Shown here piece by piece: positions 1,376 through 10,599 of a stretch of 64,000 nt of DNA; positions within the stretch are counted from its first letter, which is position 1; each line of letters starts with the position of its first letter. The stretch spans positions 416,001 through 480,000 of the forward strand of contig CAXXKM010000002.1 of the NCBI GenBank assembly GCA_963664435.2, written 5' to 3'. The notes beneath the pieces are model-generated. The model had not been told where the DNA came from. It ran no database searches and saw only the letters and a list, made by a program, of their open reading frames with translations. The translations under genes and the position numbers were made by a program. The stretch is from Longimicrobiales bacterium (GTDB lineage Bacteria > Gemmatimonadota > Gemmatimonadetes > Longimicrobiales > Gaopeijiaceae).

Positions 1376-2272
1376 GGCGCCGGCGAGTGGGGCCGGAACC
1401 GGGTCCGGGTCTTTCCGGATCCGAAGACTGGCCTGTACCAGTTGGAGTGGCGGGAGAACGGGCGCAGGCTCACCCGGTCCCTCAAGCACCGCGACTGGGC
1501 AAGGGCCAAGCGGCAGGCGGACGAGTTCGCCGCTGGCGTCGCGATGCACGAGCCCGGCGCCAAGGCGGAGACCGAACCCGAGCCGTTCAGCTTGGAGAAG
1601 CTGTTTGAAATCTACGGTGAGGAGGTGACGCCGACCAAGAGTCGGCGGTCGCGGAGCTACGACGGGACCGCGATGGAGATGTTCTTGGGATTCTTCGGGA
1701 AGGACCGGAGGCCCGGAACGCTTTCGCGGCGCGACTGGGACAGGTTCATCCGGGTGCGCAAGGCGGGCAGGATCGGGCCGAGCGGAAAGCCAGTGTCCGA
1801 CCGAACGGTCGAACGGGACCTGACGTTCCTGCTCGCGATCCTCAACTGGGCCGCGAGGTCGAGGGACCGGCAGGGACGGCTCCTCCTGCGGTCCAACCCG
1901 CTGAGGGGCCTCATGGTGCCGAGGGAGAAGAATCCGAACCGGGTGCTGCTCACGCAGGCGGAGTACGAAGCCCTGCTGGAGGTGTCTGTGGAGATGGACT
2001 GGCGCTTTCGCGTCGCGCTCGTGCTCGCGCCCGAAACCGGTCACCGGATCGGGGCGATCCGCAAGCTCAGGTGGTCGGACATCGACGTGGGAGCCGGTGT
2101 CATCCGGTGGCGGGGCGAGCATGACAAGACCGGCCACGAGCACCGGACGCCGGTGACAGCCGAAGCGCTTTCGGTCTTGGAAGAAGCCCGCGGACACAAC
2201 CCCGGGATCGGGGACGTACCGCTGCTGCCAGCGCCGAGCGATTCTTCGCGCTGCGTCCGCCGCTGGCAGGCC
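1376..2272 (+). pseudogene. Truncated tyrosine integrase (copy 1)
   Basis: Near-identical to 9436..10599 from AGEWGRNRVR to SRCVRRWQ. Upstream in-frame stop at 1322 with no start before the conserved N-terminus. Lacks HxxR and the catalytic Tyr; LAHETG is changed to LAPETG. Confidence 0.85.
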
Positions 2273-2522
2273 AGGCGCTCGCGGAGCCGTTACCTTTCAG
2301 AAGCCCCGACCACTGCCAAGGTTAGTGCGCCGCGGGGGGCGGGACCCGGCGTTGAGCGACTAACCTCTCCCGGGGGGACACCATGGCACCTTGAAGCCCG
2401 CTAGGTCGAGATCGCCGTTCGCCGGGTCGGCTCCGGGATGTCTAGCCGGTAGCGCACGGAGTCCGGTGAGCTAGATTCGGGTTCGTAGCCATTCGCCAGT
2501 CAGACACCCGGGGGGACGATCC

Positions 2523-3662
2523 ATGATTCAGAGATTCTACGCGGACAACTTCCGCTGTCTCGTGAACTTCGAACTGAAGTTCGACGAGCTGAATGTCTTC
2601 TTGGGCTCGAATGGCACCGGCAAGAGCTCGGTGTTCGACGTGCTGCTGAAGATTCAGAGCCTCGTCTACCGAGGCAGAAAGGTCGACGAGGTCTTCCGAC
2701 GAAGGGACCTATCACAGCTTTACGCCGGCAACCACCAAGACAGCGCTGGCGACCACGAGGACAGTGGCGTGCGGCAGAAGATTGAGCTTGATCTCGACAT
2801 CGCGGGTCACTCGTACCACTACCGGTTGAGCATCGGCCACCGCGAACCCAAGCTAATGCGAATTGACGAGGAAGTCCTTCTGTGCGACGAGAGACCCCTC
2901 TTCGAGTTCCGAATCGGCGACGCTCAACTGTACCGGGATGACGGAAGTCAAGGACCGAAGTACCCGTTCGATTGGACGCAATCCGGACTCGCTGCCCTGC
3001 ATGAGCGGCACGACAACAAGAAACTGTCTCGCTTCAAGAGGGAGTTGGCGATGTGGACCATCGTCCGACCCTGCCCGCCGATCTTCGAGGAGGAAGCCAG
3101 GACGGAGGACGAGCTTCTGACACAGGCTATGACCAATTTTGTCGCGTGGTACCGCAGGGTCTCCCCTGAGCGGCTGGGCGCTGCCGTGGACCTACTGGGT
3201 GATCTCCGTGACGTGCTTCCCTCATTTGAGTCACTGAGTCTCATTGCCACTGGTGAAGATGCTCGTGCATTGGAGGCTGTGTTCAAGCGGCCACACAAGC
3301 GTTCGCGGTACCGGATCGGGCAGTTGTCGGACGGGCAGCGGGCGCTGATCGCCCTGTATTGCCTACTGCGTTTCTGCGACGGAGGGGGGGCGAGGGCCTC
3401 GCTGTTCGTCGACGAGCCCGACAACTACATCTCGCTGCGTGAAGTGCAGCCGTGGGTGGTGGCGCTCTCCGAAGCTCTGGGAAACACTCTCGAACAGGCT
3501 GTCATCATCTCCCATCACCCCGTGACAATCGACTACCTGGGCGGGAAAGCCAAGTGGTTCTTCCGGGACGACGACGGACTGGCGCGGGTGAAGTACGAAC
3601 CACCTTCGTCGGCGGGGCCGGCATCCTATTCCGAATTGGTCGCACGGGGTTGGGAGCGGTGA
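2523..3662 (+). CDS. ABC/SMC-type AAA ATPase (AAA_21-like)
   Basis: NFRCL start, Walker A GSNGTGKS, signature LSDGQ, Walker B FVDEPDN, H-loop ISHH. Confidence 0.9.
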   Translation: MIQRFYADNFRCLVNFELKFDELNVFLGSNGTGKSSVFDVLLKIQSLVYRGRKVDEVFRRRDLSQLYAGNHQDSAGDHEDSGVRQKIELDLDIAGHSYHYRLSIGHREPKLMRIDEEVLLCDERPLFEFRIGDAQLYRDDGSQGPKYPFDWTQSGLAALHERHDNKKLSRFKRELAMWTIVRPCPPIFEEEARTEDELLTQAMTNFVAWYRRVSPERLGAAVDLLGDLRDVLPSFESLSLIATGEDARALEAVFKRPHKRSRYRIGQLSDGQRALIALYCLLRFCDGGGARASLFVDEPDNYISLREVQPWVVALSEALGNTLEQAVIISHHPVTIDYLGGKAKWFFRDDDGLARVKYEPPSSAGPASYSELVARGWER

Positions 3663-4207
3663 GCGCGAGCGTGATTCTGCTCTGTGAGGACCTGCAGACG
3701 GACATGTTCGTGCGTCGCTTCCTCCGTTGCCGGTTTGGACGCCGGTTCCGTCGCCGGATTCACAGTATTCCGTGTGCGGCTGGGAGTGGATCCGGTGAGC
3801 AGCGCGTGCGTGAGCAATTTCCCGACCAGCTGAGGTTGATTCGGGGTCGGCGGGGGGCCGCCCTGATCGTGGTCATCGATGCCGACACGGAATCGGCGGA
3901 AGCTCGTCGAACGCAGCTCCAAGGGCAGTGTGCGGAACGGGGCATCGCGGCTCTCCGAGCTTCGGATCCGGTTCTCGTAGTGGTTCCGCGCCGCAGTATC
4001 GAGACGTGGTTCCGCTACCTGAGCGGCCACGAGTTCGACGAGACGACCCGCTATCGGCACCTTCGGCGTGAAGCCGATTGCCAGCCACTGGCCGACCGGC
4101 TGTACGACATGTGCCACAAAGATCAGAAGCTCGCGGAGCCGGCCCCGGCCTCGTTGGTTGAGGCGTGCCAGGAATACCCAAGGCTGACGGGCCTGCTACA
4201 ACGATGA
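3659..4207 (+). CDS. DUF4276/RloB-like TOPRIM-fold partner of the ATPase
   Basis: GTGA overlap with ATPase stop; ILLCED, VVIDAD and IETWF motifs. Confidence 0.7.
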   Translation: MSASVILLCEDLQTDMFVRRFLRCRFGRRFRRRIHSIPCAAGSGSGEQRVREQFPDQLRLIRGRRGAALIVVIDADTESAEARRTQLQGQCAERGIAALRASDPVLVVVPRRSIETWFRYLSGHEFDETTRYRHLRREADCQPLADRLYDMCHKDQKLAEPAPASLVEACQEYPRLTGLLQR

Positions 4208-5034: not shown

Positions 5035-5453
5035 GCAATTCAACCGATGCTCCCAGTTGGAGTGGAGCTAGCCGGGTGGAAGGTGCGCGAGCCCCACCGA
5101 CGAAGCGAATCGAGGGACGCGGAGCGGCGCGAACGCCCGACCCTGTCGAATCCTCTACCGATGATTTGTGCACCTCCAGCGCCGTGAGTCATGACCGTGT
5201 ACGCCCGCGAAAACGACATGGGGTGCCGATGCGCACCGCGGCACTCGGGTCGTGCGCACCGGCGGAGCGGTCGAAGCTTCTGCGCACAAAGGGCTTGAGC
5301 GTCGCGGTCCCAGCCGACCGGGGCCGCAGGGCTCGCTCGGCCGTGGCTGGGAGTATCCATGTCAAGTGGATGCCCGTTTTGAGGCAGAGTGGACCTGTCT
5401 CGCGGCGTCCCTCCCGACGCCTCGGTTGCGGTGTCCGCTGTTGCTTGGCGCGA

Positions 5454-6456
5454 TCATCCGTGAGCGCTCCCCGCGTGGCAGGGCGTGGGGAAGATGGGGC
5501 TGGTGTACTCTCTCGGCGGATGTTCGGTCCAGATGCGGTCCTGCTGGACGAGCGTGTTGGCGAGGACGAGGAGCTTCCGCATCACGGCAGTCAGAGCGAC
5601 CTTCGGCGGCTTTCCCTTGGCGACGAGCGCCTCGTACTTCCGCTTGAGGTCGGGATTGTGCTGGACCGCGACCAGCGTGGGCATGTAGAGCAGCCTGCGG
5701 ACCCGGTGCCTGCCGCCCTGGATGAAGCTGCGTCCCTTCCAGTGTCCGGACTCCCGGGTGACCGGGGCGAGTCCGGCGAGGCTGGCGGCCCGGGGCCCAG
5801 GGAGCATGCCCAGTTCCGGCATGTGGACGATCAGTCCCGCGGCGGTGATGTCCGATATGCCGGGGATGGAGGTCAGGATCTCGGCCCGGCGCTCCAACGC
5901 CTTCTCCTCCCCGAGCCGCCGCCGGATCTCGGCGTCGATGAGCTTCAGCTGGCGGTCGATCTGCCCCAGCTTCTGCTTGGTGATCCGCCTGCCCACCGGC
6001 GTACGCAAGTGCTTGCCACGGTTGGTGGTGGCGACCCGGTCCTTGCGCAGCGCGTCGCGGATCTGCTGGAGCTCCGCAAGGTCGCGCTGTCCTTTCGATC
6101 TCACCTCGGTCGGACGCAGGTCCTCGATGGCCGACGCCATGATGGCCAGCGATCCGGGCGTCCACCGCGTCGGTCTTGGCGCGCCGCCCGATGGAGCGGG
6201 CGAAGGACCGGACCTGGAAGGGGTTGATCGCATAGAGGGGGAGTCCGGCCTTCAGGAGGGTATCCTCGAAGTCGCGGTGGAAGGCTCCGGTGGGTTCGTA
6301 CGCGATCCGGTCGACCCCGAGGCCGATCCAGGCGATCAGCTTGCGGAGGCCGGCCCTGTCGTTGGGGAACCGGGATGCTCTCCCCTCGGGTGCGGCGAAG
6401 GCATCCAGCCAGTCCTTGGAGATGTCGATCCCGACGGTGCGAAGGATGGTGCTCAT
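5454..6456 (-). pseudogene. IS110 recombinase/transposase, +1 frameshift near 6151
   Basis: RuvC-like DEDD motifs GIDIS, YEPTG and KTDAVDA in one frame; SIPGI...LAGLAP..ESG and VMRKLL in another. Confidence 0.9.
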
Positions 6457-6461
6457 GAGTT

Positions 6462-6690
6462 CTTCCCTTCTCCTGTGCTTGTCGTGCGAGCCTCGATGCT
6501 CGAGTATCCATTCAGGACAGAGGGAAGGACGGTGGCGATCAAACTCCCAGACGGCCCCTGACGGCCAAGCGACCCATCGATCCGACCACCGTCCCTGTTG
6601 AGCGCCCGCTCCGGCTCGCTACGCTCGCCTCTGCGGGCGCTCAACAGTCCGGGCCTTCCCCGTGACCCGGTCCTGCAAATCAAGCAGGGA
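6462..6690 (-). ncRNA. IS110 bridge RNA (5' stem, target-binding loop, donor-binding loop)
   Basis: 15-bp stem 6595-6609/6633-6647. TBL guides at 6568-6576 and 6544-6550 match the target; DBL guides at 6503-6510 and 6478-6483 match the circle junction. Confidence 0.85.
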
Positions 6691-6713
6691 TCTCCAAGAA
6701 TGGAAGAGACAAG

Positions 6714-6798
6714 CGACCCCGCAGTCCGAGGGCCTGCTACGGGTTCGGGGCCGGGCGCGTTTGCGCACCCCGGCCCCGCCCCCTCGGGTCGCTCCCAG
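6714..6798. repeat. REP-like palindromic unit interrupted by IS110 (left tip at 5347-5353)
   Basis: CTGGGAG|CGACCC ... GGGTCGCTCCCAG 13-bp inverted repeat with inner GGGGCCGGG/CCCGGCCCC stem. Confidence 0.7.
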
Positions 6799-6896
6799 AC
6801 CCAGCAATCCCTTGCGGGAAGGCCGTCGAGCCCCTGTTCCGGAGCTTGGTGGCGTCCGACCGCCGAACCCGTCGCCGCCGGGAACGCCAGCCGGGC

Positions 6897-7345
6897 TCAG
6901 AACGAGATGTAGCCGCCCATCTGGAAGAGCACGATGTTCGTACCGCCGGACCCGTCGCCGACGTGGAGGATCAAGCGCGCCCCGTAGCGCCGTCCGAACG
7001 TCAGGCTCGTACCGGCCCGGCAGTCGGTGAAACGTCTCCTCCATCGTATTCGATGCCCGCGCGCAACGCCGGACGAACGAGCCAGCTGGAACGTCCGAGG
7101 AGGACCGACCCGCCGATCCGGTTCGCCGACCCCGCAAAGTCGGCGCACCGGTAGTTCTCCACCATCCCGTACAGCGACACCGGCCCGGCGAGCCGACCGC
7201 TGATGCCGACGTAGTGTCCGGGACACGCGACGCTGTTGCCGCCCACGATCCCGGCTCCGAGCAGGAAGCGGTCCGGAGCTTCCTGGGCCTGCGCCTGCTC
7301 AGGCAACACGACGACGGCCAAGCAGGCCAGCAACAGCTTCCGCAT
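6897..7345 (-). pseudogene. Outer-membrane beta-barrel-like protein, frameshifted
   Basis: Signal peptide MRKLLLACLAVVVLPEQAQA; C-terminal GGYISF in another frame; CCGGC tandem duplication at 7012-7021. Confidence 0.65.
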
Positions 7346-8407
7346 GTCGGTTCTCCCTCGCGTGGTTCAGGATGCTCCGGCCATCCGAGGAGGCTTCGCC
7401 GCTCTCCACCGGGGCCATCGCTCGCAACGGGCTGACCAAAGCTCGGCGCACTGGCCTTCCTCAACAAGGTCGGAACCGCGAGGGAGCCGGTTCACGTCAG
7501 CTGCCCAACGCCTTCCCGCACGGGATTGATGGCCGGGAGTGACCTCGAGGCGGGGGTGGGATGGCGTACACATCCCAACCATCGCCGTGGCGTGTGAGGC
7601 ATGCCGAACACCGGGGTCACTCCCGTCACGACCGCACCATCCGGTACGGCACCGCCGTTCGTGCGGCCGTGGTGCAACCGCAACGCGGGCAGCGACATGC
7701 GGAATCCCCGCCCCTGCACATTGACACGGCGATTCCGTGCACATGCACCCCGATGTCGATGTGCACGCGCGGTACGCCACCGGCCCCGGCCGATCGGCGG
7801 TCAAGAACCCTCTCCTCGAAACCGGCTCGAACGCCATACCGAATGGCCTTGGATCATTCCTCCGGGGAGGCCCGATCGGAGCAAAACCCTCATCGCGACG
7901 AGGCGGTGAAGGCAGCCGTTGAGACCGCCCAGTTCCTCGACCGTCGAGGTATCGTAGGCGGGGTCTGCGTGGACGAACACGGCGCGGTCGGAGTCCAGCG
8001 CCGCGGGGAAAGTACCGCCGCGCCCCGGTAGACGCGGACGGGCCGCATGGAGCGGTGGATGCCGAGCGCCTCGAACGCGTCCACCTTCTCGGTCTCGGTC
8101 GGAAGCCAGCCAGCGGACGCGCACGAAGCGACCGACGACCCGGACGGGCTGGACGGGGTAGTGGATGGAGGGTCGCCTCGTCCCGAGGGCGGATCCTTCG
8201 GTCGGCAAGCTGCGAGCCGAGGGGGGTCGCCAGCTCCCCGACTCCAAGACTTACGACCGCCGGCGTGTGCATGCGACATGCAGGGGTCGATTCACACTTC
8301 GGGCTTCCGGGGATTCACACGGTCGCCGACGGGCATCCGCAGACCGCGCAACGTCTTGAGGTCCAGTCGCAAACCGGGCGTTGTCGGACGAGCCACTCTG
8401 GCGGTGG

Positions 8408-8446
8408 TGGGAGCGACCCGTCAGTCCGAGGGCCTGCTACGGGTTC
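8408..8446. repeat. Second, partial copy of the REP-like unit with an empty IS110 target
   Basis: TGGGAGCGACCCGTCAGTCCGAGGGCCTGCTACGGGTTC matches 5348-5353 joined to 6714-6746. Confidence 0.8.
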
Positions 8447-8981
8447 ACAGAGCTGATCCAGGATCCCAAATGATGCTCCCAACCTCTTCTTCCGGGTGAA
8501 TGACCACGACGGGGGACTTGGCTATCTCGCGCGAGCTTGTCGTATTGCCGGTGGCAAGCCATTCGCGAACGCAATCGCGGGGGAAGCCTCCCGCGCCGCA
8601 GGCAATCGATCGGCCGATTAGATCGACCCGACGTCCTCGCCAAGCATCGGCGGGGCGCCGACCAAACCGCGAGTGGCCGAAATCCCGCTTGCCGCGCCGG
8701 CGGTAGGGGAACGGCCGCTCCGGGGATTCCCGAAAGAAGGCCCAGACATCAAAGTCCTTGACTCCGCGATCCTGGTGGACGAAGTGCCCGGCAGCACCTT
8801 GGCAAAGGCAGACGAGCATCAGGCGATCCCGGTAGATACGGCCAGTCTCGGAACGTCGTTGGAAGAGGTCAGCAAGGTCACCGATAGCGATTTCGGCGAG
8901 CCTGTGAAGATGATGCGGCTCAATCGTTTCCCACGACCGCTCTGTCACGGTATTCGGGGTAGTTTGTTCGTGTTCGGTCAT
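8445..8981 (-). CDS. Nucleotidyltransferase-fold hypothetical protein
   Basis: CQGAA.HF....GVKDFDVWAFF resembles the Pol-beta G-x-DxD motif; GGAGG RBS. Confidence 0.6.
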   Translation of the reverse strand: MTEHEQTTPNTVTERSWETIEPHHLHRLAEIAIGDLADLFQRRSETGRIYRDRLMLVCLCQGAAGHFVHQDRGVKDFDVWAFFRESPERPFPYRRRGKRDFGHSRFGRRPADAWRGRRVDLIGRSIACGAGGFPRDCVREWLATGNTTSSREIAKSPVVVIHPEEEVGSIIWDPGSAL

Positions 8982-9435
8982 GGATTCCTCCCAACATGCG
9001 AACGCAACTCACCTCAAAGTTCAAGTTAGCGCAGGCCGGGCAGGAGGCAATAGAGGTGAGGTCCGCGAGCCGGCGCAAGGTGCCTTGATCCGCCACTGTG
9101 CCTCCGACTGACGTTACACGGTTGGCAATCCTACTCGGTGCGCGATGGGTTCGTGATCTCATCATCGCAGTGAAGATTTCGGCCTTTCGGGACGGGCCAT
9201 GTCGGGCGGGCTCCTTGTGGCGCGCGGAACCGGGAACCGCATCAAGGCAGCGAGAAGAGCTCAGCCCCTCACGCCCACGACGGCGAGCGTGGCTACCACG
9301 TAGGCCATGATCGTGGCCTCGGCGCGGAAGCTGATCGCGCGCGCCGCATTGGTCATGACTTGACTGGCGGAAACCCCCCGTCCGCGCGAGCTTCCATGTA
9401 GGCAGATCGTGCAGTCCATCTTCGAAAGGAATCGA

Positions 9436-10599
9436 ATGATGGCACACACGAAACGAAGAAGTCGGCGCGGTTACAGCGCTGGCGAGTGGGGCCGGAACCG
9501 GGTCCGGGTGTTTCCGGATCCAAAGACCGGCCTCCTCCAGATCGAGTGGCGAGAGAACGGGCGCAGGCTCACCCGATCCCTCAAGCACCGCGACTGGGCA
9601 AGGGCCAAGCGGCAGGCGGACGAGTTCGCCGCCGGCGTCGCGATGCACGAGCCCGGCGGCAAGGCGGAGGCCGAGCCCGAGCCGCTCACCTTGGAGAAGC
9701 TCTTTGAAATCTACGGTGAGGAGGTGACGCCGACCAAGAGTCGGCGCTCCCGGAGCTACGACGGGACCGCGATGGAGATGTTCCTGGGATTCCTCGGGAA
9801 GGACCGGAGGCCCGGAACGCTTTCGCGGCGCGACTGGGACCGGTTCATCCGGGCGAGACGGAGAGGCGGGATCGGGCCGAGCGGAAAGCCCGTGTCCGAC
9901 CGGACGGTCGAACGGGACCTGAGGTTCCTGCTCGCGATCCTCAACTGGGCCGCCAAGTCGAGGGACCGTGAGGGACGGCTCCTGCTCCGGTCCAACCCGC
10001 TGAAGGGCCTCAGGGTCCCGAGGGAGAAGAACCCGAACCGGGTGCTGCTCACGCAGGCGGAGTACGAGGCCCTGATGGAGGTGGCGGAGGAGATGGACTG
10101 GCGCTTCCGCGTCGCGCTGGTCCTCGCGCACGAGACGGGTCACCGGATCGGCGCGATCCGCAAGCTCACGTGGTCTGACATTGACGTGAGTGCTGGCTTC
10201 ATTCGGTGGCGGGCCGAGCATGACAAGACCGGCAACGAGCACCGGACGCCGGTAACGGTTGAAGCGCTCTCGGTCTTGGATGAGGCCCGTGGACACAACC
10301 CCGGAATCGGGGACGTTCCGCTGCTGCCAGCGCCGAACGATCCATCGCGTTGCGTCCACCGCTGGCAGGTCAGCCGCTGGTGGGACAGGGCGGAACGGCT
10401 TGCCGCGCTGGAGCCGAAGCGGGGGCGCGGCTGGCACTCGCTGAGGCGGAAGTTTGCCAGCGACCTGATGGATCAGCCGCTCAAGGTGCTCTGCGAGCTG
10501 GGCGGCTGGACGACGGCCCAGACGGTGCTGCAATGCTACCAGCGGCCCGACGAGGGCAAGCTCAGGAAGGCCCTTGCGGGACGGAGGGCTTGCTCCTGA
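9436..10599 (+). CDS. Tyrosine recombinase/integrase (copy 2, intact)
   Basis: ETGHR, HDKTG, HSLRR, LGGW and CYQ catalytic motifs; AAGGA RBS. Confidence 0.92.
   Translation: MMAHTKRRSRRGYSAGEWGRNRVRVFPDPKTGLLQIEWRENGRRLTRSLKHRDWARAKRQADEFAAGVAMHEPGGKAEAEPEPLTLEKLFEIYGEEVTPTKSRRSRSYDGTAMEMFLGFLGKDRRPGTLSRRDWDRFIRARRRGGIGPSGKPVSDRTVERDLRFLLAILNWAAKSRDREGRLLLRSNPLKGLRVPREKNPNRVLLTQAEYEALMEVAEEMDWRFRVALVLAHETGHRIGAIRKLTWSDIDVSAGFIRWRAEHDKTGNEHRTPVTVEALSVLDEARGHNPGIGDVPLLPAPNDPSRCVHRWQVSRWWDRAERLAALEPKRGRGWHSLRRKFASDLMDQPLKVLCELGGWTTAQTVLQCYQRPDEGKLRKALAGRRACS

Follow-up and report, generated by a model that had tools for sequence, protein, structure and literature searches.

Where does an IS110-family element of the Longimicrobiales insert, and how much of its address is written in its own RNA? 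The question is raised by positions 5352..6713 of a 64,000-nucleotide stretch of DNA, hereafter the window, from a Longimicrobiales bacterium with a genome of 4.5 Mb and 68% GC (G000). At this locus an earlier note had read, from the letters of the DNA, an insertion sequence (IS) with a decodable bridge RNA and a promoter formed where its ends join. The element (IS110 group) lies on the minus strand, as do all features given below unless stated otherwise, and comprises 1360 bp plus a second CT core, its ends being set by those common to four paralogs and by an empty homologous site. The left (6712..6713) and right (5352..5353) CT cores are invariant in aligned copies. On the host side they are bordered by the left target GGGGTCG (6714..6720), which agrees with the left target guide at 6/7 positions, and the right target CCCAG (5347..5351), which agrees with the right target guide at 5/5. 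The right end of the element supplies the left donor ATGGATA (5354..5360) and its left end the right donor TGTC (6708..6711). The restored target reads GGGGTCG-CT-CCCAG and the circle junction, or donor, ATGGATA-CT-TGTC; the target and CT core proposed in the note can be read directly off both flanks and the CT at 6713-6712 and 5353-5352. Moreover, the empty homologous site was found with both flanks joined on host contig C1 and on a contig of the public run X1, in agreement with a 2-nt core and scarless restoration of the target. In the circle, TGTC (6711-6708) and GACA (5363-5360) form a short inverted repeat, which with its 4 bp is the sole repeat at the junction.

Relatives align with the element over its full length, with matches spanning positions 1-1362. 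Four relatives with an intact gene, one of them at C2:901710-902711, reside in the same genome, where the closest copies share 86-87% identity with the window copy, and remnants of the same IS family were seen at C1:1161357-1162071, C3:1134920-1135144 and C3:1789034-1789258. The nearest named relatives belong mostly to Longimicrobiales or Gemmatimonadota assemblies, and a match to the element is present in 5 of 101 family genomes and, weak matches included, in 18 of 31 relatives. The traits of the IS1111 group, namely an RNA in the right end and subterminal inverted repeats of 7-17 bp, are absent from the element, whose guides sit in the left end. As to the surroundings, two related tyrosine-integrase genes (window 1442-2404 and 9409-10599), the first of which looks truncated, flank the region and belong to a family with many copies in the genome. 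Window positions 2523-4207 encode an AAA ATPase (AAA_21/AAA_15 matches) followed by a 251-aa ORF without a Pfam family, which we take to resemble a defence-type gene pair.

The six motifs on which the earlier reading of the element was built all lie at their assigned minus-strand positions in the window. The left target guide TGGGTCGCT (6576-6568) matches at 8/9 positions, the right target guide CTGGGAG (6550-6544) at 7/7 and the right donor guide GACAAG (6483-6478) at 6/6. The left donor guide had been given as TGGATACT at 6510-6503, correct in place and one base too short, as the guide runs from 6511 to 6503 and matches at 9/9. In a sequence of 68% GC, guide-like words might be expected by coincidence, and three of the four levels are indeed each reached in 7-9% of shuffles: taken singly, 8/9, 7/7, 9/9 and 6/6 were attained 156, 141, 0 and 171 times in 2000 dinucleotide shuffles. 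Jointly, the four levels were reached in 0/2000; the guides stand in the correct order and loop position, and the covariation of guides and flanks over 27 guides, presented below, refutes coincidence, to which we leave a practically negligible probability.

The predicted bridge RNA occupies 6463..6692, with approximate ends, and the left end folds with a z-score of -5.06. It comprises a long 5' stem-loop (6595..6647), a target-binding stem-loop (6527..6594) containing the guides at 6576-6568 and 6550-6544 and the handshake bases TT at 6543-6542, and a donor-binding stem-loop (6463..6526) containing the guides at 6511-6503 and 6483-6478 and the handshake bases CA at 6477-6476. In a consensus fold of the left ends of 27 relatives, all four guide regions fall in loops (two internal loops), and two-sided changes occur at 9 of 62 pairs, mostly in the 5' stem. 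The expectation that the guide segments lie in loops rather than stems is borne out by this consensus; in the minimum free energy fold of the window copy both donor guides lie wholly inside an internal loop, and a few short pairs are added within the target loop. Across single-sequence folds of 37 left ends, the donor guides are clearly more unpaired (0.62-0.64) than the average (0.36), while the two target guides exceed it only slightly, at 0.40 and 0.41; those of the window copy reach 0.61 and 0.59. An Rfam scan of the window returned 0 matches. In the consensus fold, the stem of the donor loop takes up a purine-rich stretch (6463-6475) that precedes the recombinase start codon, a pairing which could couple RNA folding to translation.

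The recombinase gene (5454..6456) encodes the DEDD and Tnp_20 domains (Pfam PF01548 and PF02371), which fall in two different frames because of a single extra base near 6151. This base is missing from the four intact paralogs, each of 333 aa, and two public runs likewise have contigs without it. Over residues 7-304, an intact paralog matches the IS621 transposase 8wt6 (E 1.3e-31), its D11, E55, D96, D99 and S236 coinciding with the catalytic positions, and all five residues are found across the two frames of the window copy. Since just one base has been added and what remains of the gene retains every catalytic residue, the frameshift might be taken for an assembly error in a copy that is autonomous. 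We consider this improbable: the extra base lies outside any homopolymer, the host genome holds no second identical copy of the element, and the other four copies in the same assembly are intact. Judged from its reading frames, the window copy is non-autonomous through the frameshift.

The putative junction promoter consists of a -35 box TTGACA (5360..5365) and a -10 box CATTCT (6697..6702; 3/6 to the consensus), which are brought to a distance of 17 bp in the circle only. Both motifs proposed for it (TTGACA at 5365-5360, CATTCT at 6702-6697) were verified, and the pattern is kept across relatives, where three junction registers occur: TTGACA-17-CATTCT; TTGTGA or TTGCGA-17-CATAAT or TAGTCT; and TTGACA-18-AATCAT. 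With a lenient pattern applied to sequence only, a promoter-like pair spans the core in 32/32 junction types vs 2/71 restored targets, and a promoter scan of the integrated form gave 0 sites. None of the public runs shared half of the query words (best share 0.29). Four of the 24 runs listed were examined; they hold relatives of the element only, as contigs, which are uninformative on transcription and habitat, and no end-to-end joint was present in them.

By analogy with IS621, the element would excise as a circle whose joined ends make a sigma-70-like promoter driving the left-end bridge RNA. The donor loop of this RNA would pair with ATGGATA-CT-TGTC and the target loop with (T/G/C)GGGTCG-CT-CCCAG, while the DEDD/serine recombinase would exchange strands at the CT core. 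We are highly confident that the window element is a non-autonomous member of the IS621-type bridge-recombinase elements, from a lineage within the Longimicrobiales (Gemmatimonadota). The IS621-type architecture, the CT core and the guide assignment advanced in the earlier note are upheld by the motifs, the recombinase alignment and the guide-flank covariation in relatives. The bridge-RNA architecture itself was published in 2024 (PMC11208160). Judged by sequence, the features that IS621 (PMC11208160, PMC11208158; PDB 8wt6) shares with the window element are DEDD and Tnp domains with the serine, a CT core, a junction promoter, a short inverted repeat around the donor, a left-end RNA with a 5' stem-loop, a target loop and a donor loop, and handshake bases fitting the non-cognate DNA. 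The left end of IS621 is quoted as 191 bp, whereas the window element has about 257 nt to the start codon. Further differences are the distant protein (E 1.3e-31), another target and donor, the frameshift of the window copy and a target on mobile islands.

If the guides address the DNA, the flanks of other copies should fit their own guides better than those of others. The family was represented by 109 records, from which 14 without an N-terminal match, 5 duplicates of own-genome loci, one locus with an unparsable loop (L084) and 8 missing a flank were dropped. The 81 loci that remained, all with a target loop that could be parsed and with a flank on either side, gave 70 distinct pairs of guide and site with 27 guides. 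The cognate left guide matched at 5.9/7 vs 4.2 in shuffles and the right at 2.8/4 vs 1.6, levels reached in 0/10,000 shuffles over the 70 pairs; when one site was drawn for each of the 27 guides, five draws gave 0/2000 shuffles each, and both tests overstate significance because many loci come from few related genomes and hence are not independent. The suggestion that the flanks of other copies would agree with their guides is thereby confirmed as covariation. The guides fall largely into two classes, class I, which includes the window copy, and class II. Within class II alone the right guide scores 2.43 vs 1.52 shuffled; within class I alone it is no better than shuffles (3.50 vs 3.43; 2179/10,000), since class I sites are alike.

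Scaffold and donor loop are near-constant across the family, and the target guides vary. Donor and right donor guide agree in 80 of 81 loci, 4 of which show a paired change from GACA to AACA. For the first handshake base, a fit to the non-cognate DNA was seen in 69/70 pairs (target loop to donor) and 70/70 (donor loop to target), which amounts to consistency rather than covariation, the handshake columns being nearly invariant; such a fit has been described for IS621 (PMC11208158). Comparison of the copies shows, as far as sequence can tell, that one scaffold and one donor loop have been kept in the family and the target loop rewritten. Of the specificity that the note had attributed to this copy as its own, the target part stands, given the varying target loop, and the donor part does not, as donor specificity is common to the whole family. 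Because the donor is common, intact paralogs in the genome could move the window copy in trans. Reprogrammability, which had been put forward as a potential of the element, finds its sole support in what looks like natural retargeting among relatives.

Matches between guides and occupied sites are not always complete. The left guide of the window copy has one mismatch to its own site. Its target guides recur in just one other element, L031, which is without a left flank and whose right flank matches at 2/5. The intact paralog L003 (G000 C3:10333-11690) matches its own guides at 7/14 and those of the window copy at 10/14, which may reflect movement in trans or guide drift. Furthermore, several class II right guides match their sites at 0-2/4; insertion at partial matches has been reported for IS621 (10.64898/2026.08.31.748434). 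When the classes were placed on a recombinase tree, thinned from 49 to 38 rows, 3 changes were required for class II, at least 3 of them forced by well-supported branches, and 5 for class I, at least 4 of them forced in this way; recombination between copies could mimic such class switches. A third guide was observed in nine IS110 relatives of one genome (L093, L095, L097, L100, L102-L105 and L107, in G053), which share one common site 32 bp upstream of an rve-type IS transposase and are either targeted to this IS or copied along with it.

The site occupied by the window copy is a branched hairpin repeat of about 90 bp with a small upstream hairpin (6714..6823, continuing at 5351 and below), which the element interrupts. 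A profile built from 18 empty copies matches the restored site (E 1.8e-19) and finds 30 matches in the host genome. Within the window lie another empty copy at 7506..7636 (plus strand) and a partial one at 8398..8496 (E 2e-5), and the opposite arm of the interrupted hairpin offers a second, unoccupied target at 6785..6798 (plus strand), fitting the guides of the window element at 13/14. With the profile derived from empty host copies only, 17/18 class I sites lie inside the repeat and 0/52 other sites do; 9 of them use one arm and 8 the other. At the level of sequence, these counts show that the guide class of the window copy lands in either arm of a conserved hairpin of about 90 bp belonging to integrative mobile elements. 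A small secreted-looking ORF (window 7001-7345) recurs beside the hairpin at 6/18 class I sites.

What this hairpin does can be approached through its form and neighbours. It may be a cis element other than a transfer origin, such as a coupling-protein mRNA leader, a single-strand promoter or priming site, or a REP-like repeat, that would serve the IS as a safe multi-copy landing site. Several observations accord with this: the repeat ends 5-7 bp upstream of the predicted coupling-protein start, the repeats are often paired and often away from transfer genes, and the outer stem covaries, with two-sided changes in 4 of 14 consensus pairs, in a manner compatible with RNA or DNA folding. Landing in REP and attC hairpins is, in addition, known in the IS110 family (PMC11187229; 10.64898/2026.03.19.712850). 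Against it, the repeats have a tight link to mobile genes that housekeeping REPs do not have, 27 of the 30 having a gene for an integrase, a 311-aa protein or a coupling protein no more than 5 kb away vs 6.9% of random positions, and the target site of the sister class contains a nick-like sequence. The chances of such a cis element are put at slightly under even.

The same gene link would also suit an origin of transfer, even if about 24 of the 30 class I repeats are not directly beside the pair of 311-aa and coupling-protein genes. So would the gene order in the five full-length pairs of the host, in each of which the repeat separates the 311-aa gene from that of the coupling protein; paralogs of the window IS interrupt two of the five. 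Fragments of the 311-aa gene, which usually precedes the repeat, lie at 7813..8108 in the window (tblastn pieces, 72-85%). The protein family has 903 matches (for example L001:4993-5928, minus strand), and its structure was modelled on 78 sequences, 77 of them among the 120 matches listed, with a pLDDT of 86. The predicted structure has an N-terminal winged helix and a C-terminal part which aligns best to restriction-endonuclease folds, at Z 5.7-7.0, below the distinctive level of the tool (Z 8); the best match is SdaI (Z 7.0, rmsd 4.1, 122 residues). For this protein Foldseek gave nothing at E 0.001, Pfam weak helix-turn-helix matches and no family, and an Atlas search unnamed clusters only, and no catalytic motif was identified in it. 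MOB_C relaxases have a restriction-endonuclease fold (PMC12857230) and travel with their own coupling protein (PMC5704250). The class I context resembles MOB_C modules in that a putative nuclease-fold protein stands beside a coupling protein, an assignment made by position and a weak fold match only, and the modelled 311-aa protein is a candidate new relaxase.

The guides of class II (nnGCTGG) address a second repeat family, in which the CT core comes directly after CTGG. This family, with 28 profile matches in the host, is oriT-like in having a hairpin, an inverted repeat and CTGGCT, and its copies often stand immediately before mobC; examples are C1:1459126, C3:44426, C3:1148821 and C2:846543. 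Class II sites match the profile of 19 empty host sites in 31 of 42 cases, a count which is partly circular since it was a profile from class II flanks that had first led to these host sites. CTGGCT is present in 19/19 empty host sites and the full CTGGCTTA in 5/19. A mobC-like gene lies within 300 bp in 9/19, the other 10/19 being without mobC nearby, and mobC lies within 2.3 kb at 16/42 class II sites vs 0/18 class I sites. ColE1 is cut between G and C, and transfer begins with the DNA on the 3' side of the nick. The commonest empty class II form, CTGGCTTG (8/19), is rebuilt by insertion at CTGG-CT, and therefore the origin may stay usable with the IS in the first DNA transferred. According to PMC5703827, CTGGCTTA is the nick sequence of ColE1 and lies upstream of mobC; the likeness of the class II target to the ColE1/MOB_HEN oriT of that report, CTGGCTT with inverted repeats near mobC, assigns it by motif and position only. 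The idea that class II targets are host -10 boxes, taken from the pattern TAnnnT, was rejected, as a -35 signal is missing upstream and the flanks make up a family of repeats. Short tandem GCTT/GCTG repeats were seen at the class II insertion point of L030, L037, L038, L046 and L067.

Taken together, the two target classes permit a reading in which the family has specialised in the transfer origins of integrative mobilisable or conjugative elements, class II in a ColE1-type nick and class I in the origin of a MOB_C-like module, and in which the IS rides or disables conjugative elements. For class II, the fit of sites to the empty-site profile, the CTGGCT and nick-like sequences and the proximity of mobC argue for it, tempered by the partial circularity of that fit and by the oriT-like sites without mobC nearby. 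For class I, the gene order of the five full pairs, the mobile-gene link and the winged helix with a restriction-endonuclease-like part, the fold of MOB_C relaxases, speak in its favour, and the subthreshold fold scores, the empty Foldseek result, the weak Pfam matches, the missing catalytic motif and the repeats away from the gene pair speak against it. Specialisation on transfer origins is accordingly a tentative reading, falling a little short of an even chance. The fuller proposal, that this is an IS110 lineage with bridge RNAs specialised on transfer origins, with at least three switches between two origin types, and that the class I hairpin serves as the transfer origin for a MOB_C-like relaxase not yet described, is more doubtful, and we give it about one chance in three.

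Comparable landing sites are known. ISPpu10 (10.64898/2026.03.19.712850) and other REP-targeting IS110 elements are likewise described as inserting into a GC-rich multi-copy stem-loop repeat, from which the repeat of the window differs in its length of about 90 bp, its branching, its link to integrative elements and its use as a target in both arms. The IS1111-group elements ISKpn4/ISPst6 (attC) and IS4321/IS5075 (Tn21 ends) are also guided by RNA to conserved recombination sites within other mobile elements, and natural retargeting between relatives is known from ISEc11/ISXne4 (PMC11187229). The IS1111-group elements have their RNA downstream and long subterminal repeats, whereas the window family has its RNA upstream, and its targets would be oriT-like sites or an undescribed hairpin. 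No report of an IS110 insertion at oriT was found in the open-licence literature, with ISfinder and the bridge-RNA supplements outside that scope and able to list such cases; in one IS110 paper that does mention oriT, it serves only to detect captured plasmids (10.64898/2026.08.14.744561). What is possibly new is the identity of the targets, control sites of mobile islands, and thus the target class.

If the targets are transfer origins, this would be an RNA-guided IS using the start sites of conjugation as landing pads, and if the family is indeed made of origin specialists, its guides would form a readable catalogue of unknown transfer origins. IS110 guides could then help to locate unknown oriT in uncultured bacteria. 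The intact high-GC paralogs, together with the 27 natural guide variants on one scaffold, constitute a series from which the rules of retargeting and mismatch may be drawn.
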